A stretch of DNA of 64,000 nt from Chloroflexia bacterium (GCA_034436115.1 DAOTVY010000020.1:604-64603); one strand, 5' to 3'. Positions 18 to 29,120 are shown, counted from the first letter of the stretch. Translations and numbers: made by a program. Notes: generated by a model not told the origin, from the letters alone.

Positions 18-3000
18 GTGACCATCCCGACCGATGTCTGCCCTGGCGCAACGGACACGGTGGACATCCTGGTGCAGGCCCAGTCCTCGCCCTATACCGA
101 CACCGTCGTGGCGGAAACGCAGCTCTCCGCAAATACCAGCCCCACTTGGGAAGCTCGGGCCACCTCGCCCAACTCTTCGATGGATAACGTGGTCTACTAC
201 TGGGATGCCGGGGCCGGCCCGCGGGTCTACCGCATCGGCGGCTACGGCGCTGCCGGCACGGTCAACATCTATAACCCGGCCACCAACTCCTGGACCACCG
301 GCCCGACCGAGCCTTCCCCCGCCATCGCCTACACCGTGGACGGTTGCCTGGGGCAGAACGCCTCCGGCCAGGATGTGATCGCCATCTTTAACGACACCAC
401 CTCCGGGGCCACCACTTGGCACATCTACAACATCGACACGAACTCCTGGACGACGGCGGCGGTGCCCTCCGGCTTCCCCTCCAACGGCCTGTGGGCCACC
501 GATGTCGCTTCCGGTCTCCCCCACGGCGCGAACCTCTGCTACATCTCCGGCGGGGCCACCACCCCGGGCGGTGGAAACACCAGTGCCCTCTACCGCTACG
601 ACCCCGCGGCCCACACCGTCCAGAACCTGGGCAACTTTACCTTGCACCCGGCCGGCTTTGACTTCCACTCCTCCTGGTACATCCCGGCGGGCGTCCTCCC
701 CGGCCTTCCCAGCGGCGGGGTCTGTGTGGCCGGTGGGGTGGATTCGGCCAGCGTCGTCTTTGCTGACACCCAGTGCTACAACTTTGCCACCAACGCCTTC
801 AACGCCCCCAACGCCGACCTGGGGACGCTGCCCCTGGCCCACTGGGGCGGGGCCGACTTTGTCCTGGACCCGCCCGGCCCGGACTTTCAACTCTGGATCG
901 TGGCCGGGGTAGATTCCAGCTTTGCCCTCTGGCCGCACTCGATGTACTACAGCGTGCTGGACGGCCAGTGGCACTACGGCCCCGATCCCGTCGCCGGGGT
1001 CTACCGTGTCGAGGGCGATGCCTATGGGATGGATGCTTACGTCATCAACGGCTCCACGGGCGGGTTCTCCTATAGCAACCTGAACCAGCACCTCGAGCAG
1101 CCGTGTCCCTTCAACATGGGTGTCATCAACGGCTACGTGATGGATGCCCAGGAGGGCTGTGCTGCGGCCACCTGCACGCCGGCCGTGGTGCACCTGGAGC
1201 CGAGCGGCATCAACATCCCGGTGGGTGCGACCGGCTACTACACCGCCAGCGTGCCGGCCTGCACCTATGAGGCCACCGCATCGGCCCCCGGCTACGAGCC
1301 ACAGGGCCCCGTGTCGGTTCCGGTGACTCCGGGAGCTCCGGTACAGCAGGACTTTTGCCTGGCACGGCCGGATATCGAGGTCAACCCAACCGCCTTCGAG
1401 GTCTACTCTGCCGACCTCAACCCAATCACCCTGCCGCTGGAGATCACCAACGCCGGCAGCGGAGAGCTGACCTGGGAGATTCGGGAGATCCCGCCGGCCG
1501 TGGGGAAAGAGACCGACCTGATCTTCCGCCCGGCTTACTTTGGCGTGGATTCGTATATCGAGGAAGAGTTTGCTGCCTCGACCGACGGCAAGGCGGATGT
1601 CTTCCTGGCCTTCGCCGGCGAGGTGGACCTCAGCCCGGCTACCCGTATCAAGGACTGGGAGGCCCGCGGCCGCTGGGTGGTGGATACCCTGCAGGCCCTG
1701 GCCGACCGCTCCCAGGCAAATGTCCGCCGCTGGCTGGATAGCCAGGGGGTCGAGTACACCGTCAACCTGAACAACACCATCTTTGCCCGCCTGACCCGCG
1801 CGCAGCTCGAAGCGGCCCTGAAGTTCCCCGAGGTGGTTGGCGCCTTCGGCAACCGCACCTACACGATCGATCCGATCGTGGACCCGAATGCGCCGGTGCC
1901 CGAGGCCACGGTGGACTGGGGGCTGATTCAGGTTCACGCATCGGAGACCTGGGCCGACTTTGGCGCCCGCGGCCAGGGCATCGTGGTGGCCAACATCGAC
2001 ACCGGGGTGCAGTGGAACCACCCCGCCCTGGACCAGGCCTACAAGTGCCCCTCGAACCCCACCGATCCTTCCTGCTGGCTGGATCCCTCCAACGTCTGCG
2101 GCGGCAGCGTCTGCGACAACAACGGCCACGGCACCCACACCATGGGAACGATGGTTGGGGATGACGACGATACCCTCCAGTACATCGTCGGCATGGCCCC
2201 GGATGCCCAGTTCATCATGTGCAAGGGCTGCGAGTCCAGCTCCTGCTCCTCCACTGCCCTGACGGCTTGCGCGAACTGGGTGCTCCAGCCGGGCGGCAAC
2301 CCAGCCAACCGGCCGAACGTCGTGAACAACTCCTGGGGCGGCGGCGGGTGCAATACCTGGTACCAGTCGTATGTCACCGCCTGGCGGGCGGCCGGCATCT
2401 TCCCGGCCTTCTCCAACGGGAACTCCGGCCCCTCGTGCAGCACGTCCGGTTCTCCGGGAGACTATCCGGAATCCTTCTCCTCCGGAGCGACCGATTCCAG
2501 CGACGCCATCGCTTCCTTCTCCAGCCGTGGTCCCTCCTGCTGGAGCGAGATCAAGCCGGATGTCTCTGCCCCGGGGGTGAACATCTGCTCCTCCGTACCC
2601 ACCAACTCCTGGAACTGCGGTTACAGCGGCACCTCTATGGCCAGCCCGCACACTGCCGGCCTGGTGGCGATGCTTTGGTCGTGCAACCCGAACCTGGTGG
2701 GTAACATCGCTGCAACCGAGTACATCATCACCAGCACGGCCTCCTGCATCCAGGACCTCACCTGCGGCGGCACGGCCTGCCCCGACGGGGCGAACAACGT
2801 CTACGGCTGGGGCCGCATCGACGCGTATGCTGCGGCGGCGGTGGGCTGCATGCAGGACATCCCCTGGGTGTGGGAGTCCCCGATCACCGGCACGACCCCG
2901 GCGGGCGAGACCTCGATCGTGGACGTGACTTTCCAGTGCCCGACCACGGACACCGTCGACTTTACCGGGACGCTGCGCATCCTGAACAACGATCCGTGCG

Positions 3001-4391
3001 GCAATCCGGTGGATATCCCGCTCACGTTGCACTGTGGTGCAGCGGTACCGGATATCGCCGTCGACCCGACGAGCCTGTCCGCGGAAATCTGCCCGGATAG
3101 CACCGCCGAGGCGACGCTCTCCATCTGCAACAACGGCAATGCGCCGCTCGACTGGAGCCTGAGCGAGGTGACGTCGACGGTTATCTTGGGCCCCTCGACG
3201 CCGTTCGTACCGGCAGGCAAGCCCACGACGGGTCCAGTGCCGAATCTGCCCGTCAGCCCACTCGGCGGGAGCGCGAACCGCGTCCTTCCGGCTAATCCAG
3301 CCCCTGAGGACGTGCTCGTGGATCAGCCGGTCGGCAGCAACACGGCCTACGCGAATCAGGACTTTGAGACCATCTACGACGCCTATGACATCTTTATCGC
3401 CGACGACTTTACCAACGCCGACCCCTGGATCATCACCACGATCTTCGTCCCGGGCAACACCTGGAACTACGGTGGGGACCTGACCTGCGCCAACACCCTG
3501 AACTGGCAGATCTACGCCGATGCGGGTGGCGTACCAGCAGGAGACCCCTGGAGCGGGGGTGCGCTATGGAACCTCTCCTTGCCTCCGACCGACCCGCAGG
3601 TAGTCCTGAGCACCGGAGTGGGCGGCTACCTCTCCAACGTCACCCTGAACCTGAATACCCCCATCGTTCTGACGCCGGGGACCTACTGGCTGGTCTTCTA
3701 CCCGCAGATGGACTTTGACACCTGCTTCCAGTACGGCCGCCACGCCTCGAACACGACCAACGGCTACGACGCGCAGGTGATCAACCCGGGCGGCGGGTTC
3801 GGCTTCCCGACCACCTGGACCTCGGTGCGCGACCCGTCCACGTGGGGCCTGACGCTGCAGGACTTTGCCTTCCGCCTGGAGGGCACGGTCTATGCAGTGG
3901 ACGTCCCGTGGCTGAGCGAGAACCCGACGAGCGGAACGGTTGCGCCGGGTGCGTGCACGGCCGTCACCGTCCTCTTTGATTCCACCGGCCTGGCTCCCGG
4001 CACCTACACCGCCGGCCTGCTCATCTCGAGCAACGACCCCGACGAGCCCGAGGTAACCGTGCCGGTGACGATGACCGTGGATGCCCCGGCGAGCGACGCC
4101 GACTTCTCCTGGTCGCCGGTTAGCCCGGTGGTCGGCGAAGAGGTCCTGTTCCAGGGTACTGCGAGCGGGAGTGAGCCGCTCTCCTACGAGTGGGCCTTCG
4201 GCGACGGGAACTTCGGCAGCGGCCAGAGCGTCACCCACACCTACGCCGAGCCTGGCTCCTACGACGTGGTGCTCACGGTCACCAACGCCTGCGGCATCAG
4301 CACCGCAACGCACACCGTGGTCGTCCAGCCGGCGGGGCCGACCTACTTCTATATCTACCTGCCAATCGTCTTCAAGGGCTACAACCCCTAA
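18..4391 (+). CDS. Secreted multidomain S8 (subtilisin-like) serine peptidase: N-terminal Kelch-like beta-propeller repeats, S8 catalytic domain, C-terminal PKD domain. Probably 5'-truncated by the window edge, since the frame stays open upstream of 18.
   Basis: Catalytic triad motifs DTGVQWNHPAL (Asp), HGTHTMGTM (His), GTSMASPHTAGLVAML (Ser). PKD-like segment SYEWAFGDGNFGSGQSVTHTYAEPGSYDVVLTVTNACG. No stop between positions 3 and 18 in frame. Confidence 0.8.
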   Translation: MTIPTDVCPGATDTVDILVQAQSSPYTDTVVAETQLSANTSPTWEARATSPNSSMDNVVYYWDAGAGPRVYRIGGYGAAGTVNIYNPATNSWTTGPTEPSPAIAYTVDGCLGQNASGQDVIAIFNDTTSGATTWHIYNIDTNSWTTAAVPSGFPSNGLWATDVASGLPHGANLCYISGGATTPGGGNTSALYRYDPAAHTVQNLGNFTLHPAGFDFHSSWYIPAGVLPGLPSGGVCVAGGVDSASVVFADTQCYNFATNAFNAPNADLGTLPLAHWGGADFVLDPPGPDFQLWIVAGVDSSFALWPHSMYYSVLDGQWHYGPDPVAGVYRVEGDAYGMDAYVINGSTGGFSYSNLNQHLEQPCPFNMGVINGYVMDAQEGCAAATCTPAVVHLEPSGINIPVGATGYYTASVPACTYEATASAPGYEPQGPVSVPVTPGAPVQQDFCLARPDIEVNPTAFEVYSADLNPITLPLEITNAGSGELTWEIREIPPAVGKETDLIFRPAYFGVDSYIEEEFAASTDGKADVFLAFAGEVDLSPATRIKDWEARGRWVVDTLQALADRSQANVRRWLDSQGVEYTVNLNNTIFARLTRAQLEAALKFPEVVGAFGNRTYTIDPIVDPNAPVPEATVDWGLIQVHASETWADFGARGQGIVVANIDTGVQWNHPALDQAYKCPSNPTDPSCWLDPSNVCGGSVCDNNGHGTHTMGTMVGDDDDTLQYIVGMAPDAQFIMCKGCESSSCSSTALTACANWVLQPGGNPANRPNVVNNSWGGGGCNTWYQSYVTAWRAAGIFPAFSNGNSGPSCSTSGSPGDYPESFSSGATDSSDAIASFSSRGPSCWSEIKPDVSAPGVNICSSVPTNSWNCGYSGTSMASPHTAGLVAMLWSCNPNLVGNIAATEYIITSTASCIQDLTCGGTACPDGANNVYGWGRIDAYAAAAVGCMQDIPWVWESPITGTTPAGETSIVDVTFQCPTTDTVDFTGTLRILNNDPCGNPVDIPLTLHCGAAVPDIAVDPTSLSAEICPDSTAEATLSICNNGNAPLDWSLSEVTSTVILGPSTPFVPAGKPTTGPVPNLPVSPLGGSANRVLPANPAPEDVLVDQPVGSNTAYANQDFETIYDAYDIFIADDFTNADPWIITTIFVPGNTWNYGGDLTCANTLNWQIYADAGGVPAGDPWSGGALWNLSLPPTDPQVVLSTGVGGYLSNVTLNLNTPIVLTPGTYWLVFYPQMDFDTCFQYGRHASNTTNGYDAQVINPGGGFGFPTTWTSVRDPSTWGLTLQDFAFRLEGTVYAVDVPWLSENPTSGTVAPGACTAVTVLFDSTGLAPGTYTAGLLISSNDPDEPEVTVPVTMTVDAPASDADFSWSPVSPVVGEEVLFQGTASGSEPLSYEWAFGDGNFGSGQSVTHTYAEPGSYDVVLTVTNACGISTATHTVVVQPAGPTYFYIYLPIVFKGYNP

Positions 4392-4775: not shown

Positions 4776-5120
4776 ATGCACGAGCTAGCTGTCACCCAGC
4801 GGATCCTTGAAATCGCCCTGGAACACGCGCACCAGGCTGGCGCGCAGCGAATCGGGGCCATCCATCTGGTGGTCGGGGACCTCTCCTCCATCGTCGACGA
4901 TTCGGTCCAGTTCTACTTCGACTACCTGACGCCGGGCACCATCGCCGAGGGGGCTCGCTTGACGTTTCAGCGCATCCCGCCGCGATGTCGCTGTCGCGAA
5001 TGCGGCACCGAATTCGCTCCTGAGCCGGGCATCCTGTGGCAGTGCCCTGCGTGCGGAGCCTGGGGGGGCGAGGTGCTCCAGGGACGGGAGTTCTACATCG
5101 AAAGCATCGAGGTGGAATAG
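4776..5120 (+). CDS. hypA: Hydrogenase nickel-insertion protein HypA
   Basis: N-terminal MHE, C-terminal zinc-ribbon CxxC...CxxC (CRCRECG...CPACG); length 114 aa; immediately followed by hypB. Confidence 0.85.
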   Translation: MHELAVTQRILEIALEHAHQAGAQRIGAIHLVVGDLSSIVDDSVQFYFDYLTPGTIAEGARLTFQRIPPRCRCRECGTEFAPEPGILWQCPACGAWGGEVLQGREFYIESIEVE

Positions 5121-5121
5121 C

Positions 5122-5793
5122 GTGCGCACCATACCGGTGATCCAGGAGATTCTGAGCGCAAACGACGAGCTGGCGCAGGAGAACCGCGAGCGCCTGAACC
5201 GCGCGGGGGTGCTGGCCGTCAACCTGATGTCCGCGCCGGGAGCGGGGAAGACGAGCCTCATCCTGCGTACGGCGCAAGCCCTTCGGGGCCAGCTCCGGTT
5301 GGGCGTTGTGGAGGGCGACGTGGCCTCCCAGGTGGATGCGGATCGGGTGGCGGCTGCAGGGTTGCCCGTGGTGCAAATCAACACGGGCGGAGGATGCCAC
5401 CTGGATGCAAACATGCTCCGGGCGGCGCTGGGCCGGCTCCCCCTGGAGCAGATGGACCTCCTGATCGTGGAAAATGTGGGGAACCTGATCTGCCCGGCAT
5501 CCTTCCGCCTGGGGGAGCACCTTCGGGTCGTCCTCACCAGCCTGGCGGAGGGGGACGACAAACCCCAAAAGTATCCCGATCTTTTCCTGCAGGCTGACGC
5601 TATCGTGGTCAACAAACTCGACCTGGAAGCCTACCTGGATTTCGACCGCCAGCGCTTCCGCAAACTGGTACAGGCGATGAATCCCCACGCGGCACTCTTT
5701 GAGCTATCCTGCCGCAACGGGGAGGGGGTGGAAGCCTGGACGACATGGCTGTACCAGCAGCGGCAAGCCTTGCTGGCGCGGCTGAACCCTTGA
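5122..5793 (+). CDS. hypB: Hydrogenase nickel-incorporation GTPase HypB
   Basis: P-loop GAGKTSL, EGD and NKLD-like motifs; CobW/HypB/UreG GTPase family features; translationally coupled to hypA. Confidence 0.85.
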   Translation: MRTIPVIQEILSANDELAQENRERLNRAGVLAVNLMSAPGAGKTSLILRTAQALRGQLRLGVVEGDVASQVDADRVAAAGLPVVQINTGGGCHLDANMLRAALGRLPLEQMDLLIVENVGNLICPASFRLGEHLRVVLTSLAEGDDKPQKYPDLFLQADAIVVNKLDLEAYLDFDRQRFRKLVQAMNPHAALFELSCRNGEGVEAWTTWLYQQRQALLARLNP

Positions 5794-5860
5794 CACAGAA
5801 ACGGGGATCGGATGTGCCCGGAAGAGGGATCCTGAACATCGCCGAACGGAGGAAGAGGCC

Positions 5861-6214
5861 ATGCTGAGCACAGAGGAACTGACGAGGCTGCGGCAGGATC
5901 TCGAGGCGGAGCGAGAGAGGATCCGGGCCCACATCGATGAGCTCCTCGACATGCTGCGTCTGGAAGATCGCGAGATCGGCTCCGGCGAGGACGACGCGGA
6001 CATCGCCGCCCGCGCCATCTCCTATAACGGCCTCCTGGCCCTGATGGAAAGCGAGCAGCAGACGCTGGCAGAGATCGAAAATGCCCTTCAGGCGATGGAG
6101 GAGGGCACCTACGGCCGCTGCTTGTCGTGCGGCCGGGAGATCGAACCAGCCCGCCTGCAGGCGAGACCCTTCGCCCGCCTGTGCATTACCTGCCAGGAAC
6201 GCGAGACCGGCTGA
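5861..6214 (+). CDS. DksA/TraR-family C4 zinc-finger protein
   Basis: C-terminal CLSCGREI...CITC four-Cys zinc finger preceded by a coiled-coil; about 117 aa. Confidence 0.7.
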   Translation: MLSTEELTRLRQDLEAERERIRAHIDELLDMLRLEDREIGSGEDDADIAARAISYNGLLALMESEQQTLAEIENALQAMEEGTYGRCLSCGREIEPARLQARPFARLCITCQERETG

Positions 6215-6242: not shown

Positions 6243-6473
6243 TCAAGGGAGGAGGGGATATACCCCTTCGTAATCCAGGTTGGCCGCGCGTAACGTAGCC
6301 TCTACCTGATCCCGGTCGCTCCAGGGGATGCGAAGCGCGGTGCCACAATCGGAACTCAGCTGGCGCGGGGTCGGGATCAGTTTGCAGACGATACCCGCGC
6401 CGCGCACCAGGCTCTCCGCCCGCAGGGCGTGGCTCACCGAAGGCACCAACACCACCCCGTACGATGGCTCCAA
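6243..6473 (-). CDS. DUF3343 (putative Se/S carrier-like) small protein
   Basis: 76-aa protein last in the yedE/yedF/selD operon; reading-based resemblance to the DUF3343 family that co-occurs with YedE/YedF. Confidence 0.55.
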   Translation of the reverse strand: MEPSYGVVLVPSVSHALRAESLVRGAGIVCKLIPTPRQLSSDCGTALRIPWSDRDQVEATLRAANLDYEGVYPLLP

Positions 6474-6494
6474 CGGTGATCGCCTCCCACGCTC

Positions 6495-7088
6495 TCACAA
6501 GGATACCAGCCGGCCGGCCGTAAGCAGGGTCTCGGCAATGCTATACATGTTCGATACCGTGCCCACGGCAACCTTTTCTTTCAGTTCGTAATACCCCAGA
6601 CAGGTCCCACAGGCCAGGATCCGGATACCCCGCCCGGCAAGCTCCTGCAAGTCCTCGAGGATCGGCGATCCCTCGACCACCAGCTTGACCCCGCTGTTGA
6701 GAAAAACGATCACGTCGGGGCGCGGTTCCACCTCTAGAAGGGTGTGGAAGAAGGAGCGGATCAGCACTGCTCCCAGTTCGGCGTGCTCACCTCGTCCCAT
6801 CGTTTCCGAGGGCACGAGCAACACCCGTGGGCCCACAGACTCCTCGGGAGCCACCTCACACGTCTCAGGCTGAACCTCGGACCGGCGCACGAGATGCACG
6901 TACACCCCTTCTTCCTTGCCGTCCAACCGCACAACCCATCCCGCCTTCTCCGCCATCCGACGGACGTTCTCTGCCGAATCCGGTCCGTCCACGATGACAA
7001 TCACCTCATCGGCCTTTTGCATCGCTTCCCTGGCCCGCAGAACGGGTTGAGGGCAAGGCAACCCCCGCGCATCGACGATGCGTGCCAT
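6495..7088 (-). CDS. yedF: Selenium metabolism protein YedF (TusA-like N-domain with CPxP motif plus DsrE-like C-domain)
   Basis: N-terminal GLPCPQPVL (TusA CPxP motif), C-terminal DsrE/DsrF-like domain, about 197 aa; directly downstream of selD. Confidence 0.75.
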   Translation of the reverse strand: MARIVDARGLPCPQPVLRAREAMQKADEVIVIVDGPDSAENVRRMAEKAGWVVRLDGKEEGVYVHLVRRSEVQPETCEVAPEESVGPRVLLVPSETMGRGEHAELGAVLIRSFFHTLLEVEPRPDVIVFLNSGVKLVVEGSPILEDLQELAGRGIRILACGTCLGYYELKEKVAVGTVSNMYSIAETLLTAGRLVSL

Positions 7089-7114
7089 CGAACGCCTCCT
7101 ACCTCTGGCCTACT

Positions 7115-8170
7115 TTACGGGACCACCTCAATCCCCGCTCCTGGAACGGCTTCTCCGATCACCCACCCCTCCTCCCCCAGGGCCCTCAGCTGGGCGAGGA
7201 GCGTGTCCGCGCGCTCCGGGGCGACGGCCAGGAGAAGCCCACCGGAGGTCTCCGGGGTAAAAAGAAGCATCCGCATCTCGTCGGGGATCGAGGGGGCAAA
7301 GCGCACACGGTCCGTGTACGCATCGCGATTGCGGCAGCTCCCGCCCGGGAACAGCGACTGCTCCGCATACTCCCTCGCTCCCGGCAGCAGAGGCAGCGCC
7401 TCGAGATGGAAACGGAGGGCGACTTGGCTCTGATCCGCCATCTCCAATCCGTGCCCCAGGAGGGAGAAGCCGGTAATGTCCGTGCAAGCGTGTACTTCCG
7501 CCGCCCGGGCCGCCCGCGCGGCTCCGCGGTTCAGGCGCGCCATCGAGCGCACAGCTGCGGCCACGTGCTCCGGCTCGGCAACTTCCCCCTTCAATGCCGT
7601 GGTGATCAGTCCCACCCCGAGCGGCTTGGTCAGTACCAAGCGATCTCCTGCGCGTGCCCCGCCCTTGGTCCAAATGCGCTCCGGATGCACCAGTCCCATC
7701 ACGGCGAGACCATATTTCGGTTCCGGGTCCTCGATCGTGTGGCCGCCCGCGAGCACCGCTCCGGCCTCCGCCACCTTGTCTGCGCCGCCCCGCAGGATCG
7801 CCTGAACGACCTCCAGTGGCAGGTCTCGTGGGAAGGCGCAGATGTTCAAAGCCAGCACGACCTCGCCCCCCATCGCATATACGTCGCTCATCGCGTTGGC
7901 TGCGGCAACGGCCCCAAAATCGTAGGGGTCGTCGACGATGGGCGTGAAGAAGTCGAGCGTCTGGATGACGGCAACTTCCTCAGTGACCTGGTAGACGGCA
8001 GCATCGTCCGTGCCCTCCAGACCAACCAGCAGCTGCGGGTATTCCTCCGCGTGAAAGCGCTCCCGGAGTGGGCGCAGCACCTGCGCCAGGGCCGCCGGGC
8101 CCATCTTGGCCGCTCAGCCAGCTGCCGAAGCCATGCTCGTGAGGCGAATGCGTTCCCGTTCTTCCTCCAT
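7115..8170 (-). CDS. selD: Selenide, water dikinase SelD, a selenoprotein (Sec encoded by TGA at 8114-8116; the ORF caller started at 8104)
   Basis: Extending the minus-strand frame upstream of 8104 gives MEEERERIRLTSMASAAG-U(TGA)-AAKMGPAALAQVL. This matches the SelD N-terminal motif (E. coli ...SHGAGCGCK...), with Sec at the Cys17 position and the Lys conserved. ATG at 8168-8170 is preceded by GAGGAG. Confidence 0.85.
8058..8113 (-). ncRNA. Candidate bacterial SECIS hairpin immediately 3' of the selD UGA
   Basis: mRNA after the UGA reads GCGGCCAAGAUGG GCCCGG CGGCCCU GGCGCAG GUG CUGCGCC CACU CCGGG. Two nested stems (GGCGCAG/CUGCGCC and CCCGG/CCGGG) begin about 11-13 nt downstream of the UGA. 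Confidence 0.45.
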
Positions 8171-8261
8171 CGCTGCTCCTCAGTCCTTGTGCATGGGGCG
8201 GGGGCACTCAAACCCCCGCCCCATTTTCGCACACGATGCGCGCCCAGGCAAGTTGGCCGCA

Positions 8262-8474
8262 TCATCGCGTCAGCCGAAGCCGATACGCGGACCCTTCGAA
8301 AATGACCTCCGCCTGCCACCCCTCCCGCTCCGCTACGCGCAGGCAGTTCTCGCGCGCGGTGTCGGTGTCCACCAGTACTTCCACCTGGCCGCTCCCGGCA
8401 CGCCTCAACGCCTGGCGCGTGAGCAGCGCCGGATGGGGGCAGGCAAGGCCCCGAGCATCTACGACCGTGGTCAT
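8262..8474 (-). CDS. TusA-like sulfur/selenium carrier protein
   Basis: 70 aa with GLACPHP (CPxP motif) near the N-terminus. Confidence 0.7.
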   Translation of the reverse strand: MTTVVDARGLACPHPALLTRQALRRAGSGQVEVLVDTDTARENCLRVAEREGWQAEVIFEGSAYRLRLTR

Positions 8475-9610
8475 GGCTTTCCCTCCGTCGCACGCAAGCG
8501 CGCGGTCAACCCGAGGATCAGGCAGAAGGCCAGGCCAATCGCTACCGCGATCTGGCCATAGATGGTCGGGCCGCCGACCCGTAGCAGGCCGTTTTCCAGC
8601 CGCTGGTCCGGCACACCGGCGAGGGCAAAGTTGTGGGCAAAGCCGGCGCCCACGATCATCCCCAGAACAAAGACGGCCGCATCCCCATCTCCTTCTCCGG
8701 ACAGGAATAGCTGACGGCCAGGACAGCCGCCCGCCAGCGCAAAAGCGAGCCCGGCCAGCGCCATGCCCGCAAAGTTCCAGAAGTGGTTGCTGTGGGCGAC
8801 GGGCTGGTCAAGGAAGGACACACGGACGTAGGGCGTCCCGGTCGTCCAGGTGAGCACCAGGTTGGTGAGAAAGGCCGTCACCAGGAGCGCGATCACCCCT
8901 CCAAGAAGGTGGGTTTCGCCCATCAGGAAGAGGTCACGAAGCGCCCCCATGGTGCAAAAGCGGCTGCGCTGACCTAGGAAACCGACCACTAGCCCGACCA
9001 CGAGTGACACCACGAGCGCGGCGTGCGCGGCCCCCGGACCCTTGGTGCTGGCAAAGATCGGCAACCCTTCGCCGAAGACCGGGTGGAAGATGGCCAAGAG
9101 GAGCAGCCCGACCATCAAGCCCGGCATCAGCCATCCGATCACCGCGGGCTGGGGTGAAGCGCGGCCGAGCGCATAGCCCCCGCGCATGAGGAGGACCCCG
9201 ATCCCAACGCCCGTTGCCAGTCCTGCCAGGGCCAGAAGCGCGTTCAGGTCGCCCCCGGCCAGGCGAAGCAGGGCACGCCACGGGCACCCCAGGAAAACCA
9301 GGGCGCCGATCATAGCAAAGGCACCTAGAAGGAAGCGCGCAATCGGGGCCGAGCCGGCGCGTGGTCGGAACTCGCGAAAGAGCAGTGCGGCAATCGTAGA
9401 GCCGAGCACGAATCCGACGATCTCGGGCCGCAGGTACTGCGTGAGCGCGTTCCGGTGCAGTCCGAGCGCTCCGGCGATGTCCCGCTCGAAACAGGCCACG
9501 CACACCCCCATGTTTTTCGGATTGCCCCAATAGACGAGCAGCGCGGCCAGGATCCCGATGATCGCCCCGGCCACGATGGGGCCCCAGCGAGAGGCGAAGA
9601 AGCGCTTCAC
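8471..9610 (-). CDS. yedE: YedE/YeeE-family membrane protein (putative selenium transporter). Start set at the GTG preceded by AAGGAGG; the ORF track extends to 9739.
   Basis: Polytopic membrane protein with an AGGCPGRQLF segment; strong SD AAGGAGG 5 nt before the GTG at 9608-9610; lies in the Se operon. Confidence 0.7.
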   Translation of the reverse strand: MKRFFASRWGPIVAGAIIGILAALLVYWGNPKNMGVCVACFERDIAGALGLHRNALTQYLRPEIVGFVLGSTIAALLFREFRPRAGSAPIARFLLGAFAMIGALVFLGCPWRALLRLAGGDLNALLALAGLATGVGIGVLLMRGGYALGRASPQPAVIGWLMPGLMVGLLLLAIFHPVFGEGLPIFASTKGPGAAHAALVVSLVVGLVVGFLGQRSRFCTMGALRDLFLMGETHLLGGVIALLVTAFLTNLVLTWTTGTPYVRVSFLDQPVAHSNHFWNFAGMALAGLAFALAGGCPGRQLFLSGEGDGDAAVFVLGMIVGAGFAHNFALAGVPDQRLENGLLRVGGPTIYGQIAVAIGLAFCLILGLTARLRATEGKP

Positions 9611-9879
9611 AGCTACCTCCTTTTGTCCCGCAATCGATGCCCGAACAAGTCGATTCTTTCCCCGCTGCACCTCCTCTCTTCGCCCCCTGAGCGGCAAAAG
9701 GGCCACTGCCTCCCGACCCGGGACCGGGGTAGCCCACACGAAAGCCGGGGCGATCGAGCTTCGCTTGCAGGCTGCACCTCACCCGGTCGGGGGCGCAAGC
9801 AGACCCCGCTCCGCCCGGAGCCAACCGGCCCTTGGCGGAGAGGGTCATCGTTTCTCGTGAGGCCCGGTGCTGCGTCCGC

Positions 9880-11040
9880 TCATCCGCTTGTCCCGGAGGC
9901 CGCGAGCTCGGCAACTGCCTCAACCGCGGCCTCGATCTCTATACGCGTATGGAACGGCCCCAGGCTGAAGCGCACCGTGCCGGCCGGGAAGGTCCCCAGC
10001 GCCCGATGGGCGGCCGGCGCGCAATGCAGCCCGGGCCGGCACGCGATCCCGTAGCGTTCATCCAGCAGTTCCGCCACCTCCGAACACGGCCGGCCCACGA
10101 TGTTGAAGGAAACCACCGCCACCTGCTTTTCCGCCCGGCCGGTCCCATACACGACGACCCCCGGGATGCGCCCCAGGCCTTCCAACAGGAGCGCGGTCAA
10201 CGCCTCCTCGCGGGCGCGGATCTTCTCTACCCCCTCTTCCCGCAGGTAGCGGACCGCGGCCTGCAGTCCCGCCAAGCCGACGGCGTTCTGCGTCCCCGAT
10301 TCGAACCTGTCCGGAAGGAAATCCGGTTGCCTTTCCTCCTCCGAGCGGCTTCCCGTACCCCCGAACGTCAGGGGACGGAAACGGTCGAGCGGAACCCGCT
10401 CGCCAATGACCAGGCCCCCGGTGCCCGTGGGTCCCAGGAGCCCTTTGTGTCCAGCAAATGCCAGAAGATCGATCCCCAGCGCCTCTACCGCGATCGGGAT
10501 CGCTCCCGCTGTCTGAGCGGCGTCGACCAGTAGTAGCCGCCCTGCCTGCCGCACGATCTCGCCCACCTCGCCCACCGGCTGCAGGGTGCCGCAGACGTTG
10601 GACGCGTGGTTCAGGACGACCAGCACGGTCTCGGGGCGGATGGCGTCCGCAACTGCCGCTGGATCGAGTTCTCCCTGCGGGGATGCGGGCAAGACCGTGA
10701 GGCGTACACCGGTTGCTTCCAACGCACGCAGGGGGCGCATCACCGAGTTGTGTTGCATGGGCCCCACCACCACGTGATCTCCCGGGCGAAGCAACCCCTG
10801 CAACGCCAGGTTGAGGGCAAAGGTGGCACCAGGCGTGAGCACGACCCGCAAGGGGTCGCTTACGCCGAAGAGAGCCGCCAGCGCCTCGCGCGTCTGGTAG
10901 ACCACACGGCCGGCCTCTACAGACATCCGGTGTCCAGAACGGCCGGGGTTGGCACCGATATCTCTTAGGAAGGCGGCCATCGCTTCCAGTACCTGGGGCG
11001 GCTTGGGCCACGAAGTCGCGGCCTGATCCAGGTAGAGCAC
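9880..11040 (-). CDS. Class V aminotransferase-fold cysteine desulfurase / selenocysteine lyase (NifS/SufS/CsdA-like)
   Basis: 386 aa, aminotransferase class V features (MLYLDQAATSWPKP..., PLP Lys region ...AFAGHKGLLGPTGTGGL); first gene of the Se operon. Confidence 0.75.
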   Translation of the reverse strand: MLYLDQAATSWPKPPQVLEAMAAFLRDIGANPGRSGHRMSVEAGRVVYQTREALAALFGVSDPLRVVLTPGATFALNLALQGLLRPGDHVVVGPMQHNSVMRPLRALEATGVRLTVLPASPQGELDPAAVADAIRPETVLVVLNHASNVCGTLQPVGEVGEIVRQAGRLLLVDAAQTAGAIPIAVEALGIDLLAFAGHKGLLGPTGTGGLVIGERVPLDRFRPLTFGGTGSRSEEERQPDFLPDRFESGTQNAVGLAGLQAAVRYLREEGVEKIRAREEALTALLLEGLGRIPGVVVYGTGRAEKQVAVVSFNIVGRPCSEVAELLDERYGIACRPGLHCAPAAHRALGTFPAGTVRFSLGPFHTRIEIEAAVEAVAELAASGTSG

Positions 11041-11316
11041 CCGCTTCCTCCTTTCTCAACCATTTCACAAAAACAAGGCCGCCGGCAGGCTTCCTGCCGG
11101 CGGCCCGCTTCCGCGCATGGATGGCTCAGGGACCTGGGTCCCTCCCGGACTTGCGCACAGGAGGCCTGCACACCAAAAAGGCGGCTCCACTGGGGTGCCA
11201 CCCGGCACCCACGGGTCCGCCTCAAGTTCGCCGCTTCTCGCTATGCAGCCTGCGCATCGCGCTCTCCAACCTTGTTCGGTTTTACTTATTTTACGACCCG
11301 CAACGCGGGCTGTCAA
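11041..11316 (-). promoter_or_regulatory. Promoter (TTGACA-17-TAAAAT) plus ~230-nt structured leader ending in an intrinsic terminator directly before the csd SD. Candidate attenuator or riboswitch of unknown class for the Se operon.
   Basis: Minus strand: gtacTTGACAgcccgcgttgcgggtcgTAAAAT; then a leader containing a possible 11-codon uORF (AUG CGC AGG CUG CAU AGC GAG AAG CGG CGA ACU UGA) and the hairpin GGGUGCC-ggg-uGGCACCC; then the terminator GCCGCCGGCAGG-aagc-CUGCCGGCGGC + UUGUUUUUGUG only ~20 nt before AAGGAGG-GUG. Confidence 0.45.
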
Positions 11317-11347: not shown

Positions 11348-13072
11348 TCAGGCAGCTGCCCCAATGCCCTGGAGGAACTCTTCGGCGATCGCCTCAACCT
11401 CTGGCGCCCCGGGTTGCTGCATCGCCCTCTCCGCCAGACGCTGCGACTCGGGGATGGTCAGACGCCGAAGGAGCCCTTTGATTTCCGGGATTCGCTCCGG
11501 GGAAAGGCAGAACCCGTCGGCTCCCAGCCCCAGGAGGATCGCGGCCACCGCGGCATGGCCCGCGCTTTCCCCGCACACCTCCAACCGTTTGCCCACGCGG
11601 TGGACACCCCCGATCGCCTCCGCAACCAGCCGGAGCACCGTAGGATGAAGCGGCCGGAAGAGATGGGCGACACGGAGGTTATGGCGGTCGCAGGCGAGCA
11701 CGTACTCGGTCAGCCGGTCCATATCGAGGAAGAAGGCGTCGACCTCGTCCGCCATCGCGGCCAGGTTCAGAACCACCAGCGGAGTCTGGAGCAGAAGCCC
11801 GGTGCGGATATCTTGAGCGTGCGGCACGCCCGTCTTCTCCAGATCTTGACGCGCCCGTTTCAGCCATTCCAGCCCAGCACGCAGTTCGGCGAACGTCTCC
11901 ACCATGGGGAACACCACGAGCAACGGACGGCCCGCCGCGGCCCGCAGGATGGCCCGGAGCTGCTCCCGGAAGGCGGAAAGGTAAGCCAGAGAGAGCCGGA
12001 TCCCGCGCAATCCCAGCAGCGGATTGCGGATCTCAGGCTCCGCCGGGAAGGGAAGCGGTTCCTCCAGGCCCGCGGAAAGGGTACAGAAGCCCACCCGCCC
12101 CGGGGGAACCTGCTCCAGGAGTTCGCGATAGGCATCGACCTGCTCCTCCTCGCTCGGGGGCGTACGACGCCCACGGAAGAGGAAATCCGTGTGGGCCAGG
12201 CCGACTCCCTCGGCCCCGCGCGAGAAGGCGGCCAGCCATTCGTCGGGCCGATCCAACGCGGCACGCACATCCACTCGCCAGCCGTCGGCCGTTTGGGCGG
12301 GAAGGCTTGCGTCGTAACTGGGTTGCGCCGCACGTAGAACTTCCTGCCGCCTCTTGTAGCGAGCAAGGGTCTCGTCGTCCGGATGGACCTCCACGCTTCC
12401 CGTGCTCCCGTCAACGACCACCGTAGCCCCGTTCGGGATGGCTTCGAGGGCACTTTCGCCCAGGGCGATCACTGCCGGAAGCCCCAGGCGGCGGGCCACG
12501 GCGGCAACCGGGCTGGTCGGCACGCCTCGGGCGAGACACAACCCCAACGGCGGCTGAGCAGCCAGCTGCAGCGCCTCGGCAGGGCCCAGCATGGAGGCAA
12601 TCAGGATGGTGCCGCGGGCACCAGCGAACGGCATAGGCGAAGGCAACTGCAGCAAAGCTGCTAGCACCCGCTGCCCGACCTCCCGGAGGTCGGCGACCCG
12701 GGCTTCCAGATCTTCGTCCTGAATGGGGGTGAAGATGGAAAGATAGGCAGAGACCGCCTCCTGCCAGGCCGCTTCGGCACGCATACCGGTGCGAATGAGC
12801 GCGCGTGCGCGATCCACCAACCCCGGGTCCCCCAAGAGCAGGCTCTGTGCCTCTAGCAAGCGATCCGCCTCACGGCGCAGCACGCGATGCGCCGCGGCGT
12901 GAAGCGCCTCCACCTCTTGCCGCGCACGCTCCAGCGCGCTCTCGAGGCGCTCCAGTTCCTGCGCGATACGCCCTGGCTTTCCTGGGGGCACCGCCACTTC
13001 CGCCGGCCGATACCACAGGGCCGGCCCAATGGCGATCCCACGGGTAATCCCGGTCCCTCGTAGAACGGTCAT
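11348..13072 (-). CDS. PEP-utilising enzyme, PtsI (Enzyme I)-like paralog, apparently lacking the phospho-histidine (TSH to TSP)
   Basis: End-to-end similarity to Enzyme I (N-terminal LRGTGITRGIAIG, C-terminal AEGVGLAHTDFLFRGRRTPPSEEEQ, ...EVCGESAG...). The position aligned with the GGRTSH active site reads RGVPTSP. Start chosen at the internal M of MTVLRGTG. Confidence 0.6.
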   Translation of the reverse strand: MTVLRGTGITRGIAIGPALWYRPAEVAVPPGKPGRIAQELERLESALERARQEVEALHAAAHRVLRREADRLLEAQSLLLGDPGLVDRARALIRTGMRAEAAWQEAVSAYLSIFTPIQDEDLEARVADLREVGQRVLAALLQLPSPMPFAGARGTILIASMLGPAEALQLAAQPPLGLCLARGVPTSPVAAVARRLGLPAVIALGESALEAIPNGATVVVDGSTGSVEVHPDDETLARYKRRQEVLRAAQPSYDASLPAQTADGWRVDVRAALDRPDEWLAAFSRGAEGVGLAHTDFLFRGRRTPPSEEEQVDAYRELLEQVPPGRVGFCTLSAGLEEPLPFPAEPEIRNPLLGLRGIRLSLAYLSAFREQLRAILRAAAGRPLLVVFPMVETFAELRAGLEWLKRARQDLEKTGVPHAQDIRTGLLLQTPLVVLNLAAMADEVDAFFLDMDRLTEYVLACDRHNLRVAHLFRPLHPTVLRLVAEAIGGVHRVGKRLEVCGESAGHAAVAAILLGLGADGFCLSPERIPEIKGLLRRLTIPESQRLAERAMQQPGAPEVEAIAEEFLQGIGAAA

Positions 13073-13860
13073 CGGGACGCTCCTTCCTGCTCGGAGCGCG
13101 ACGCCTTGCACGCCGTCGCCAGGAGCATCGAACGAAGCGGCGGCACCACTTGGGCAATCGCCCAAAGTCCGAGCTTGGGAAAAGAACGGGCCAGGTGCCT
13201 TCGGGCGAGCCCCACTCCCTCCCGGGCCGCAACGTAGCGCAGCGTCACGTGATCAAATCCCGCTGTCCTCAAGAGCCAGCACACCTCCTCGGCCGTATAG
13301 AGCCGATGGTGCACCGTGTACCGACCCTCCCCCTCGAGGAGCATCCGGTGGCGAAACTCGGCTTCCGGTTCCAGACTCATCCAGCCGAGCAGCCGCGCGG
13401 CCAGCATCAGCCGGATACGCAGCGATCGCGCGTTCGGCGTACTGAGCACCAGAAGCCCTCCGGGAGCGAGCACCCGGTGGATTTCCCTTAGCGCAGGAAG
13501 GGGCGAGCCAGGCAGATGCTCCAGGACCTCCGAGAAAACGGCTGCGTCGAAGGTGTTGTCTTGGAAGGGGAGCGGATCGAACTCCAGGTTGCAGCGCCGC
13601 ACCTCTACTTCCAAGGCCTGCCAGAGGTCCGCGCGGTGCTCTGGGTCGAGGTCGATTCCATCGACGCGATAGCCGGCACGCACCAGCAGCTCCGTGAACT
13701 GCCCCGGGTTGCAGCCGATCTCCAGCACCCGGCTTCCCGTCGGCACCTGGAGCGCCTCCAGCAAGGCAACGTAACGGGTACGATGAAGGGCAAAATACTC
13801 CGGTTTGCGTTCTTGGGGAAGGAAGCGGCCGTAATCCTCCACCAGCCGGCGAGCATTCAT
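13069..13860 (-). CDS. Class I SAM-dependent methyltransferase
   Basis: Motif I VLEIGCNPGQFTELL; start taken at the internal M (MNARRLVEDY). Confidence 0.65.
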   Translation of the reverse strand: MNARRLVEDYGRFLPQERKPEYFALHRTRYVALLEALQVPTGSRVLEIGCNPGQFTELLVRAGYRVDGIDLDPEHRADLWQALEVEVRRCNLEFDPLPFQDNTFDAAVFSEVLEHLPGSPLPALREIHRVLAPGGLLVLSTPNARSLRIRLMLAARLLGWMSLEPEAEFRHRMLLEGEGRYTVHHRLYTAEEVCWLLRTAGFDHVTLRYVAAREGVGLARRHLARSFPKLGLWAIAQVVPPLRSMLLATACKASRSEQEGASR

Positions 13861-23456: not shown

Positions 23457-25328
23457 TTAGCGGACCAGTTCGGTCAACCCGAGCTCGGCGAGTTTTTCCG
23501 GCGTGGGGATGCCGTTCTTGTCCCAGCCGCGCTGCTCATAGTACATATCGAGCAGCTGCTGCACTGCCTCGAAGGGCGTAAGCTGCCCCTTGGTCGGCCC
23601 CCCCGTGGAGGGGTGTTTATAGAAACGCGGGGCGGGATAGTCCCAGGTGCGGCCAAAGCCCTCGACCTCGCGGATCCAGTACATACGGGTCAGGTTCCAG
23701 GTTCGCTCCGAGATCTTCAGGAGGTCTTCCCAGGAGCGTTCGATCCCGGTAACCGCGGCCATCATCGGCGCATACTGGGTCACGTCGATGCCCAGTTCGA
23801 CCCACTGCAACCGGCAGGCGCCCATCGAATCGAAGAGTGGCCGGATGTGCTGCAGGAGGATCACCCGGGCGACTTTCTCTGGAGCCACCCGGTCCCGGCC
23901 AACCTGCAGGTCGTACGTGATCGCCCAGGCGCGGTTGTGGTGGGCGCCGACGTCCGCGGTCATGTAGGCGAGCAGCATGGCCGTGGCGTTGTGGGTCTCG
24001 TAGCCGCTCTGCTCCATCCCCTTGACCTGCACCGCGAACTCCTCGCTCCCCTGGCCGATCCGCTGGGAGGCGACCTTCACTCCCTCGGCGAGCAGGTTAC
24101 CGAGCCCCTCACGGCGGGCGATCTTTTCCAGAAGAGCGAAGGCCGCCTGCGCGTTTCCGAAGCGCAGGTCCAGGCCACCGGTATCCTCCGGGGTGAGCAG
24201 GCCGCGCTCGTAGCACTCCATGGCGAAAGCAACGGCGTTGCCCGCGGAGATGCTGTCGATGCCGAGCTCGTCGCACAGGTAGTTCCCGTAGGCGACGTCC
24301 TCGATGTCCCCCAGGGCGCAGTTGGAGCCCACGAGGGCGATCGTCTCGTACTCCGGTCCCTCGACAAAGACGCCGTGCTTCTTCGTGTAGGAGTACTTGC
24401 CGCAGGGGGAAGGGCAAGCGAAGCACCCCTTGTCGGTGATCACGATGCGCTCGCGCATGACCTGGCCGTAGAGGTTCGGGCCCTGCTCAAAGGACCCTTG
24501 CTGGAAGTTGCGCGTCGGGAGCGCACCGACTTCGTCACACCAGGAGGTGACGATCGTGGTGCCATACCGCTGCCAGGGGCCGAGACCTTCGGCTTCCTTG
24601 CAGGCGCGGAACATCGCATGAGCCAGTTCCCAGAAGCGCTCGGGGTCGGCCACCGGGATCGTCTTGCTACCCCGCACCGCCACCGCCTTGACCTTCTTGG
24701 CCCCCATCACGGCGCCCACGCCCCCGCGACCGGCCTGGCGGCCAAAGTCGTGGGTGATGCAGGCATACTTGACCAGGTTCTCTCCCCCCGGGCCAATGGT
24801 CGCGATCTGGAACTCCTCGCCCAGTCGCTTTTTCAGGATTTCTTCGGTGGTGATGGAGCCTTTGCCCCAGAGGTCGGAGGCGTCCCGCAGCTCCACCCGG
24901 TCGTCATCGATGAAGAGGTAGACCGGCTTGGGCGAGATGCCCTCGAAGATGATCGCATCGTAGCCGGCGTACTTGATCTCCGCCGTCAGGTGGCCTCCGA
25001 CGCTCGCGCCGGCATACCCTCCGGTCAGCGGCGACTTGCAGGCCCAATCCATCTTCCCTGCGCCCGGGACGAGCAGCCCGGAGAGCGGCCCGGTCGAGGC
25101 AACGAGTTTGTTTTCCGGCCCCAGTGGATCAGCCCCCTTAGGGACCTCCGTCCAGAGGTAGTAGATGCCCAGGCCTCGGCCGCCGAGGAAATCGCGAGCC
25201 ACCTTCTCGTCCAGCGGCTCTTTTCGGATTTCACTTGTGGTCAGGTTCACCCGCAGGATCGTACCGGCATATCCGTTCATGGTCGCTCCTCCGTCTGATT
25301 CGTCCCTATTCTGCGATGGACAGGACAT
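23457..25328 (-). CDS. Tungsten-type aldehyde:ferredoxin oxidoreductase (AOR family)
   Basis: 623 aa; AOR N-terminal MNGYAGTILRVNLTT...FLGGRGLG and overall AOR-family architecture. Confidence 0.8.
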   Translation of the reverse strand: MSCPSQNRDESDGGATMNGYAGTILRVNLTTSEIRKEPLDEKVARDFLGGRGLGIYYLWTEVPKGADPLGPENKLVASTGPLSGLLVPGAGKMDWACKSPLTGGYAGASVGGHLTAEIKYAGYDAIIFEGISPKPVYLFIDDDRVELRDASDLWGKGSITTEEILKKRLGEEFQIATIGPGGENLVKYACITHDFGRQAGRGGVGAVMGAKKVKAVAVRGSKTIPVADPERFWELAHAMFRACKEAEGLGPWQRYGTTIVTSWCDEVGALPTRNFQQGSFEQGPNLYGQVMRERIVITDKGCFACPSPCGKYSYTKKHGVFVEGPEYETIALVGSNCALGDIEDVAYGNYLCDELGIDSISAGNAVAFAMECYERGLLTPEDTGGLDLRFGNAQAAFALLEKIARREGLGNLLAEGVKVASQRIGQGSEEFAVQVKGMEQSGYETHNATAMLLAYMTADVGAHHNRAWAITYDLQVGRDRVAPEKVARVILLQHIRPLFDSMGACRLQWVELGIDVTQYAPMMAAVTGIERSWEDLLKISERTWNLTRMYWIREVEGFGRTWDYPAPRFYKHPSTGGPTKGQLTPFEAVQQLLDMYYEQRGWDKNGIPTPEKLAELGLTELVR

Positions 25329-25692
25329 TCATCCCGCAGAAGTTGACGCACTCGCCGCACAGGTCGCACTCGAACGGCTGATCGCGTCCCGGGATCTTGA
25401 AGATCACGTGCTCCGGGCAGGCGTCGATGCAGGCGTCGCAGGCGATGCAGAGCTCGGGATCGATGTAGTAGGCCCCCTTGTCATTCTGCGGGATCGCATC
25501 CACGGGGCAGACCTTGGCGCACTCGCCACATTGGGTGCAGACCCGTACTTCGTACTTCCCCGGGCTGGGGAAATGGGGAACGATGGCCAGGGCCGCCTTG
25601 CGGATGTTGTTCTCGCGGAAGTGGCTGAAGGCGCACGCAAGCAGGCAGGCCTTGCATCCGCTGCATTTGGAACTGTCGGCGTAGAGTCGCAT
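25306..25692 (-). CDS. 4Fe-4S dicluster ferredoxin-like protein (AOR partner)
   Basis: Multiple CxxCxxC...CP motifs in 128 aa; overlaps the AOR start by 23 nt. Confidence 0.75.
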   Translation of the reverse strand: MRLYADSSKCSGCKACLLACAFSHFRENNIRKAALAIVPHFPSPGKYEVRVCTQCGECAKVCPVDAIPQNDKGAYYIDPELCIACDACIDACPEHVIFKIPGRDQPFECDLCGECVNFCGMNVLSIAE

Positions 25693-28108: not shown

Positions 28109-28151
28109 GCCGGATCCGTCCGGGAGTCCACCGGGCGGCTCATAGGACGCC

Positions 28152-28222
28152 GGGGCAAACGGCGCCAGGCCCGCCGGCGAGCCCGGCCCGTTGCCGCGGA
28201 GGCACCTGGCGTCGTTTGCCCC
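28152..28222 (+). other. Long intercistronic stem-loop (18-bp arms with one G-U, 34-nt loop) between the SBP and ABC ATPase genes
   Basis: GGGGCAAACGGCGCCAGG ... CCTGGCGTCGTTTGCCCC; no strong U-tract follows. Confidence 0.5.
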
Positions 28223-28303
28223 CATTTACGGGGAGCCATCTTCAGCTCCCCAGCCGTCGACGTGGCTCGTCGGCGAGGGCGGGCCACAAGGGGGTTCAGT
28301 GGT

Positions 28304-29110: not shown

Positions 29111-29120
29111 GGAGCCACTG

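Follow-up and report, generated by a model that had tools for sequence, protein, structure and literature searches.

Leaders with a UGA-terminated short reading frame, a SECIS-like hairpin and a terminator precede selenium-utilisation genes in Chloroflexota and may act as selenocysteine-dependent transcription attenuators

We examined the selenium-utilisation operon csd-yedE-tusA-selD-yedF-DUF3343 of a Chloroflexia bacterium, which occupies positions 6243-11040 on the minus strand of a 64,000-nt stretch of DNA (GCA_034436115.1 DAOTVY010000020.1:604-64603; the whole stretch is referred to below as the window). The operon is preceded by a leader that combines a short open reading frame (ORF) ending in UGA, a hairpin like a bacterial selenocysteine insertion sequence (SECIS), an in-frame extension to a second stop codon, and an intrinsic terminator. 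The element is defined by these sequence features and their conservation, by covariation in four helices, by conservation of the reading frame and by its exclusive association with selenium genes; it is well supported as a conserved RNA/ORF element and is apparently undescribed. We propose that such leaders are probably ribosome-mediated transcription attenuators that govern the selenium operon, with a selenocysteine (Sec) UGA as the sensing codon. It also seems fairly likely, from comparison of the sequences, that they constitute a dedicated cis-acting RNA device of the Chloroflexota, in which the leader UGA would be read as Sec only with SelB-Sec-tRNA(Sec) and the position of the ribosome would flip the RNA between antiterminator and terminator. 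Our confidence in a regulatory role of the leaders is moderate to good, and in the direction of regulation it is low.

A promoter and terminator scan placed a near-consensus promoter and a strong terminator hairpin in the 307 nt upstream of csd. The elements of this leader (unit 1), in the order of transcription, are:

11288-11316, minus strand: promoter-like sequence TTGACA-17-TAAAAT (11 of 12 matches), for leader unit 1 and csd
11222-11257, minus strand: leader ORF 1, with a Shine-Dalgarno (SD) sequence GGAG at 11267-11264, ATG at 11257, predicted peptide MRRLHSEKRRT (11 codons) and UGA (UGA#1) at 11224-11222
11180-11221, minus strand: SECIS-like hairpin 1, upper stem GGGUGCC/GGCACCC (7 bp), loop GGGU at 11203-11200, 19-22 nt after the UGA
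11158-11169, minus strand: putative antiterminator box GCAGGCCUCCUG, read from the sequence and complementary at 11 of 12 positions to the terminator apex CAGGAAGCCUGC
11126-11128, minus strand: second in-frame stop UGA (CCCUGA), 31 codons after UGA#1
11066-11106, minus strand: intrinsic-terminator-like hairpin (14 bp, 12 of them G-C) followed by UUGUUUUUGUG, 26 nt before the csd start

The promoter lies downstream of the stop codon of the preceding gene, which encodes a PEP-utilising enzyme (11348-13165). Promoter and terminator bracket about 240 nt, with a fold z-score of -4.5 against shuffled sequences. Three other loci (L003, L083 and L084) form a small Chloroflexia clade with the window (the window's clade). 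All three share TTGACA and a -10 element of TAAAAT or TACAAT, and they retain the hairpin, second stop and terminator; in L083 the second stop comes 29 codons on, owing to a 6-nt in-frame deletion. The ATG, length and TGA of leader ORF 1 are invariant in the four clade members. The N-terminal residues of its peptide vary, whilst ...SEKRRT is kept via synonymous changes. In the window's clade only, hairpin 1 directly precedes CCGCC-UUUUU (11172-11180, minus strand), ~100 nt ahead of the main terminator; with this U5 run, hairpin 1 resembles a terminator or pause site too.

A script that sought the arrangement ATG-ORF-TGA-hairpin upstream of the first selenium gene in 80 genome loci found the same leader design in many of those from Chloroflexota, irrespective of which selenium gene (csd, yedE or selD) came first. 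The shared order is SD, short ORF, UGA, SECIS-like hairpin, an in-frame extension of 21-33 codons running over the box and a small hairpin (H3), second stop and intrinsic terminator. The ORFs have 7-12 codons and their peptides end in ...(Y/H)HRRT, ...RRT or ...KR. With near-duplicates removed there are ~45 distinct leaders, some in Chloroflexota genome loci and others on metagenome contigs without an assigned taxonomy.

The association with selenium genes was also seen where no gene had been specified. A pattern built from the invariant part of the leader was scanned over the metagenome contigs, not conditioned on any gene, and gave 54 matches, 49 of which had sufficient downstream sequence. 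A yedE or selD gene lay on the same strand within 170-361 nt in 46 of the 49. The matches also include a chance match within a gene (L103), a match before a disrupted yedE (L130) and a match with other genes downstream (L122). The last of these is a complete leader (MLYHRRT-UGA, hairpin, box and terminator) in a region that begins ~60 nt ahead of the leader UGA and ends 1620 nt past it, and it precedes genes for a 262-residue TIM-barrel-like protein and an ABC substrate-binding protein, not yedE; both genes may prove to be new targets of selenium regulation.

A covariance model of the leader core (R1) was searched over both strands of the window and the 80 genome loci (1.24 Mb). It matched solely at sites immediately upstream of selenium clusters and solely in loci labelled Chloroflexota. 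Three of the sites were outside the training set (L017, L060 and a second copy in L025), and weaker matches were found at the expected position in Dehalococcoidia and in another Chloroflexia locus. By comparison, BLASTN of the leader and spacers against 84 loci recovered the closest relative only. Against Rfam 15, the leaders of the window and L008, and the spacers, had matches at chance level only (E above 2); nothing relevant came up when the window, its 6-11.5 kb region and the L008 leader were searched, whether the gathering score or a permissive E-value was applied. We found no description of a Sec-decoding leader or attenuator in the literature searched, subscription-only papers being outside its coverage.

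Several loci show variants of the design. L025 has two copies, one before selD and one before yedE (7069-7150 and 8401-8482), the second with a degraded U-run. In L093 and L108, insertions rich in CCTGAGC repeats lengthen the read-through ORF to 50 and 58 codons with the frame kept, and the repeats also occur past the terminator. Two Dehalococcoidia loci (L030, 8184-8247; L032, 2548-2611) carry a divergent MLMNRRT-UGA with hairpin GAGAGC-GUG-GCUCUC ~380 nt upstream of yedE; their 3-nt GUG loop resembles that of the second hairpin past the selD UGA.

To assess the RNA structure, 39 distinct full leaders were aligned with MAFFT and the pairs of each specified structure were counted, with slid registers as the comparison. 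The SECIS-like hairpin was 94.1% paired, with 6 of 10 pairs changed on both sides. The antiterminator helix, between the box and the terminator apex, was likewise 94.1% paired (5 of 7 pairs compensatory), the terminator helix 94.3% (8 of 10) and H3 86% (5 of 8), the 3' arm of H3 ending at the second stop in nearly all leaders. Slid registers scored lower for each of the four helices; when the partner register was slid, pairing of the SECIS-like hairpin and antiterminator structure dropped to 31-56%.

The antiterminator carries the most weight among these helices. The box, 7-12 nt long and reading GCAYACGCCAG in the main clade, immediately follows the SECIS-like hairpin on its 3' side. Its partner is the terminator's distal 5' arm together with the loop (CUGGCGUGUGC). 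Antiterminator and terminator share alignment columns 249-255 and are thus mutually exclusive. Between divergent clades the box and apex sequences are wholly different with complementarity kept, as in L012 (box GUACAUACCAG, apex CUGGUAUGUGC) and L060 (box CACAUACGUGGG, apex CCCGCGUAUGUG). The mean box-terminator duplex energy was -24.0 kcal/mol for cognate pairs, -20.4 for non-cognate pairs and -16.4 for shuffled sequences; the cognate advantage is real but blunted, because most terminators are alike. A further helix between the SECIS 3' arm and the box, which looked good by eye in L008, was 65% paired, no better than shuffles, and was rejected.

The hairpin itself has the geometry of a bacterial SECIS. 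By the usual criteria (bSECISearch, Escherichia coli fdhF) the apical loop lies ~16-37 nt from the UGA and contains G/U, and fdhF has a GGUC loop at the same distance as here. In the leaders the hairpin is 3' of an in-frame UGA, its loop RGKU begins at +19 in nearly all cases, with G/U in the loop, and its stem covaries.

Evidence for translation comes from both ends of the reading frame. In the upstream ORFs examined, a purine-rich SD-like sequence lies a few nt upstream of the ATG or GTG (judged by eye), and the RRT before the UGA is kept via different codons in three clades (CGC CGY ACC, CGS CGA ACY and CGC CGA ACG). In 35 of the 39 leaders the second stop, identified by homologous alignment columns, shares its frame with UGA#1. 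The distance between the two falls into seven classes (75, 78, 81, 90, 93, 96 and 102 nt), so that indels come in multiples of three. Three leaders have TAA in place of TGA as the second stop; it is thus a stop codon that is conserved rather than a particular sequence. Across leaders the read-through extension is 20-58 codons long. ORF length was considered as evidence and discarded, open frames in the other two frames being often similarly long. The loci retrieved contain 46 recognisable selD genes, every one with TGA where Sec is encoded, and the organisms concerned thus decode Sec.

A second leader of this kind (unit 2) lies in the 269-nt csd-yedE spacer:

9845-9883, minus strand: leader ORF 2, MSGRSTGPHEKR, whose ATG overlaps the csd stop codon (ATGA); UGA at 9847-9845
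9805-9844, minus strand: SECIS-like hairpin 2, GGGCC-GGUU-GGCUC, loop at +19
9781-9779, minus strand: second stop GGGUGA, exactly 21 codons past the UGA in all four clade members
9696-9735, minus strand: terminator-like hairpin and UUUU, read from the sequences, ~7 bp in the window and 11 bp in L083 and L084

Leader ORF 2 has 12 codons ending in (H)EKR in all four clade members, with a GTG start in L084. Hairpin 2 keeps a GGUY loop at +19 in the four, and its stem covaries (GGGCC/GGCUC, GGGGGCC/GGCCCCC and, in L084, GGGGACC/GGUCCCC). Aligned with yedE leaders from other Anaerolineae (L094 and L005), the spacer proved collinear. Model R1 missed unit 2 in the window's csd-yedE spacer, the promoter and terminator scan did not detect its terminator, and the fold of the spacer was no better than shuffles (z = -0.47); the assignment comes from manual and MAFFT collinearity over four sequences only. 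With both units, the operon seems to have two sensors in series; unit 2 is tied to the csd stop codon and would be supplied by ribosomes completing csd (translational coupling).

From these elements we infer translation of the leader ORF, Sec insertion, SelB binding, termination and a direction of regulation, as follows. A ribosome would initiate on the leader ORF and reach UGA#1. Without Sec-tRNA it would be released there; with SelB-GTP-Sec-tRNA(Sec) on the hairpin, Sec would be inserted and the ribosome would run on to the second stop. The molecule sensed would be Sec-tRNA(Sec), the end product of the SelD-SelA pathway. Depending on where the ribosome stands, either the box would pair with the terminator apex, allowing read-through into the operon, or the terminator would form. 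In the direction that we prefer, plentiful Sec-tRNA would lead to a melted box, a disrupted antiterminator, termination and an operon that is off; with selenium limiting, the box would pair with the apex and the operon would be on. Among attenuator models we lean slightly towards this direction, because the box-apex helix would form by default behind the folded SECIS hairpin, because a translating ribosome must melt the box and H3, and because yedE mRNA rises by 5.3 log2 on selenium starvation in Methanococcus maripaludis (PMC11097638).

A number of points weigh against this account. Constrained folding (minimum free energy plus energy, with ribosome masks) gives no separation of the two directions. 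A ribosome at the second stop leaves the box uncovered and could free the H3 5' arm, extend the antiterminator and reverse the logic. Release by release factor 2 (RF2) without Sec-tRNA makes the 'limiting' state an untranslated leader. The putative SECIS of selD (GGCGCAG-GUG-CUGCGCC, loop 34 nt after the UGA) is unlike the leader hairpin, a U5 run stands behind hairpin 1 in the window's clade, the terminator of unit 2 is weak in the window itself, and L087 and L135 have 1-nt deletions by which the reading frame meets a stop sooner. Because the aligned sequences are related, significance is overstated by the shuffle controls. Finally, every organism concerned is uncultured and represented by a metagenome-assembled genome.

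With the same elements, abundant Sec-tRNA could instead turn the operon on, which we regard as possible but unlikely. With a ribosome on its 3' arm, H3 would release its G-rich 5' arm (GGGGGCGGUG, like the terminator 3' arm), which would extend the antiterminator over the whole terminator 5' arm; without read-through H3 would form, the terminator would gain a free toehold and transcription would stop. This logic is formally identical to the 1:2 versus 2:3 choice of the trp attenuator. In its favour, H3 is conserved with covariation, nearly all leaders have its 3' arm directly against the second stop, and its 5' arm is complementary to the proximal terminator 5' arm, with an apparent A-U compensation in L025 (judged by eye). 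Likewise, selD mRNA would be futile without Sec, because SelD is itself a selenoprotein. However, the box-apex helix (94% paired) should form by default, which would leave the operon on in both states, and selenium starvation induces rather than represses yedE in M. maripaludis (PMC11097638). Nor does placing the ribosome at stop 2 leave the terminator 5' arm more sequestered in folding: the stabilisation gained by sequestering that arm was -8.9 kcal/mol without a ribosome, -9.7 with the ribosome at UGA#1 and -8.6 at stop 2 (p = 0.07).

Our proposal requires read-through of UGA#1. If instead the hairpin were a SelB-binding operator, or a riboswitch that binds another protein or a ligand, the short ORF could be incidental or a conventional leader ending at the UGA. 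The SECIS-like element in the 5' untranslated region of E. coli selAB is reportedly a precedent, and the hairpin apex is the best conserved part of the leader. Yet the UGA is invariant, as is its distance to the loop (18 nt), the upstream ORFs examined have a start codon behind an SD-like sequence, RRT is conserved via different codons in three clades, and the second stop stays in frame across seven spacing classes and changes to TAA in three leaders. We consider a device without read-through improbable.

We think it very improbable that the leader ORF and its extension are a gene for a small selenoprotein (~40-45 residues), followed by an unrelated ordinary terminator or attenuator. An SD, ATG, UGA, SECIS-like hairpin and conserved in-frame stop are the features of a selenoprotein gene, and Cys is present in some extensions (...FLVCRPP in the window). 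The extension peptide, however, is poorly conserved beyond the residues encoded by the hairpin and varies from 20 to 58 codons, and in L034 the hairpin lies in a different frame. Conservation follows RNA pairing, the compensatory changes altering the amino acids, and the box within the ORF covaries with the terminator apex ~60-90 nt downstream, which only a structural switch explains. That nothing here is regulatory, the 11106-11066 terminator merely ending the PEP-utilising-enzyme gene (11348-13165) that it does lie downstream of, and the spacers being neutral and conserved by close kinship, is hardly credible: the spacer fold of unit 2 and the lack of an Rfam match would fit, but a promoter lies between that gene's stop and the terminator, the same leader stands behind unrelated upstream genes and before different first genes, four helices covary, and the idea is already contradicted by the metagenome gene association, the covariation and the specificity of R1.

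The genes behind the leaders fit the families to which the original prediction had assigned them, and all six are on the minus strand:

9880-11040, minus strand: csd, class-V pyridoxal phosphate (PLP) cysteine desulfurase / selenocysteine-lyase-like enzyme (PF00266; TIGR01977, 448 bits against a cutoff of 377)
8471-9610, minus strand: yedE, putative selenium transporter (TIGR04112, 452 bits), GTG start after AAGGAGG
8262-8474, minus strand: tusA-like carrier (PF01206), 70 residues, CPHP motif, overlapping yedE by 4 nt
7115-8170, minus strand: selD, selenophosphate synthetase and selenoprotein (TIGR00476, 398 bits), ATG at 8170
6495-7088, minus strand: yedF, TusA plus DsrE-like domains (TIGR03527, 191 bits)
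6243-6473, minus strand: DUF3343 / Se_S_carrier (PF11823, 81 bits), TTG start after GGGAGG

The Csd protein has the class-V PLP fold, with the PLP lysine K199 (GHK) and C340 (GLHCAP) invariant in 21 homologues. It scores below the SclA selenocysteine lyase model NF040779 (379 bits against a cutoff of 525) and is a member of the broader TIGR01977 family. The name of that family, am_tr_V_EF2568, refers to Enterococcus faecalis EF2568, which we take to be an SclA adjoining selD. The yedE start is the GTG at 9610 rather than position 9739 of the ORF list; the resulting 379 residues are also given by metagenome gene callers. In selD the in-frame TGA at 8116-8114 is codon 19, at the catalytic Cys/Sec position (SAAG-U-AAK), within the N-terminal G-(C/U)-x-x-K loop, and two conserved hairpins follow within 45 nt. 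YedE (TIGR04112), YedF (TIGR03527) and DUF3343 (PF11823), beside selD, all score over the curated cutoffs.

The picture of one compact transcription unit with tiny or overlapping junctions was partly right and is too simple. The genes are co-directional and three junctions are short (a 4-nt overlap of yedE and tusA, 26 nt between selD and yedF, and 21 nt between yedF and DUF3343), but 269 nt separate csd from yedE and 91 nt separate tusA from selD, a terminator-bearing leader stands before csd with a second in the csd-yedE spacer, and a candidate promoter precedes selD. Both long spacers hold blocks conserved across the four members of the window's clade. The tusA-selD spacer contains:

8251-8223, minus strand: candidate internal promoter TTGCCT-17-(TG)CGAAAAT, ahead of selD-yedF-DUF3343
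8222-8195, minus strand: GC hairpin GGGGCGGGGG/CCCCCGCCCC, 10 bp, without a U-run, directly after the candidate promoter

This block, TTGCC(T/C)-17-TGTGCGAAAAT and the GC hairpin, is invariant in the four members and its flanks vary; we read it as a promoter candidate within the operon, with a hairpin that may stabilise the 5' end.

As a set of genes, the operon is an ordinary member of the widespread yedE/tusA/csd/DUF3343/yedF/selD selenium-utilisation cluster. A genome scan with a csd profile yielded the 80 loci, from Chloroflexota, Thermodesulfobacteriota/Syntrophaceae, Acidobacteriota, Zixibacteria, Myxococcota, Bacteroidia, Gammaproteobacteria and other groups, and tblastn of the six window proteins found the same selenium genes clustered, in permuted orders, in 60-odd of them. 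The commonest order is yedE-tusA-csd-DUF3343-(yedF)-selD; csd-yedE-tusA-selD-yedF-DUF3343 occurs only in the window, L003, L083 and L084. The link of YedE, YedF and DUF3343 to SelD was already known, as the original prediction said, and Sec lyase and SirA-like genes also co-localise with selenium genes (Lin et al. 2015, PMC5322559). Reading the operon as selenium import, carriage, mobilisation and activation agrees with the family assignments. The csd-like lyase and extra TusA are not distinctive, being part of the commonest arrangement and already in that survey. Given the survey and the permutations in many phyla, the 'complete pipeline' is a known neighbourhood of which the window is a further member, with the same six protein families clustered with selD; it differs in a gene order confined to a small Chloroflexia clade and in a csd under the SclA cutoff. 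As a routine member of a known neighbourhood, the gene cluster carries little weight.

The hypA, hypB and DksA-like genes predicted on the opposite strand (4776-6214, plus strand) were confirmed, and Pfam scans of the rest of the 64-kb window found no further hyp gene or hydrogenase. The original prediction had seen in these genes a possible hint of a Se-dependent [NiFeSe] hydrogenase elsewhere. The same scans found no selA, selB, selU or yqeB/C in the rest of the window, and no tRNA was found in the window. A dksA-hypB-hypA neighbourhood also occurs in L003, convergent with the cluster as in the window, and L077 has hypB-hypA (6652-7681) beside the cluster, co-directional and upstream of yedE. 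The linkage of hypA-hypB to the selenium cluster is thus recurrent but rare, in two arrangements, and no hydrogenase was seen.

Elsewhere in the window there is a cobalamin riboswitch (RF00174, 59.7 bits; 45035-45185, minus strand) upstream of an ORF with a weak SQHop_cyclase_C/prenyltransferase-like match (43849-45015) and a corrinoid adenosyltransferase gene (43282-43824). A sugar-type ABC transporter, three URO-D-like (MtaA/CmuA-type) paralogues and a galactokinase lie behind a LacI regulator (27263-34787, plus strand). A tungsten-type aldehyde:ferredoxin oxidoreductase and its ferredoxin are encoded at 23457-25692 (minus strand). A protein of at least 1457 residues with Kelch-like repeats, subtilase S8 and PKD domains enters from the window edge (18-4391, plus strand).

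Bacterial selenium sensing and regulation are largely unknown, a LysR-type candidate alone having been proposed (Lin et al. 2015, PMC5322559). If our proposal is true, the leader would be the first codon-recoding attenuator and the first bacterial cis-regulatory selenium sensor, as far as found in the literature searched. Selenium metabolism would gain the feedback logic of classical amino-acid operons, recoding would join the signals sensed by attenuators, and a selenium-responsive genetic part of ~200 nt would be to hand. The leader also serves as an annotation marker for selenium-related genes, e.g. the ABC transporter and TIM-barrel protein of L122, which have no other link to selenium.

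The closest parallels are the trp, his, leu, thr and pheA attenuators, which share a promoter, SD, short ORF, alternative antiterminator and terminator hairpins, U-run and first gene, and in which the position of the ribosome likewise reports how much of the pathway's end product, a charged tRNA, is available. Those attenuators stall at runs of sense codons, whereas the leader here would use a single UGA recoded by SelB-Sec-tRNA(Sec) with a SECIS-like hairpin. The alternative to decoding would be termination by RF2 rather than a stall, and the leader consequently has two nested ORF lengths.

Work by Thanbichler and Bock in 2002 reportedly showed that in E. coli the SelB quaternary complex binds a SECIS-like element in the selAB 5' untranslated region and represses translation. 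That system shares a SECIS-type hairpin in the leader of selenium-metabolism genes and feedback from the SelB-GTP-Sec-tRNA complex. The selAB element has no translated UGA ahead of it and acts on translation initiation; here, by contrast, the hairpin follows a UGA within an ORF and is tied to a terminator/antiterminator pair.

In tnaC (UGA stop, RF2 inhibition, Rho) and in the mycobacterial polycysteine leaderless ORFs (bioRxiv 10.1101/834739), codon-specific decoding or termination in a short ORF controls an operon, as we propose here, and the conserved ..HRRT C-terminus recalls stalling peptides. Neither involves Sec or a SECIS, and tnaC uses Rho where the leader has an intrinsic terminator. 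In Treponema primitia, selenium controls transcription through translational uncoupling, so far as the abstract describes it (PMC3892789), and selenium would thus act on gene transcription via translation-transcription coupling in both cases. Set against that abstract-level description, the leader here has its UGA in a dedicated upstream leader with antiterminator and terminator hairpins. The joining of a recoded UGA and a SECIS in a dedicated leader with an antiterminator/terminator switch is found in none of the systems compared, and sets the proposed attenuator apart from each of them.

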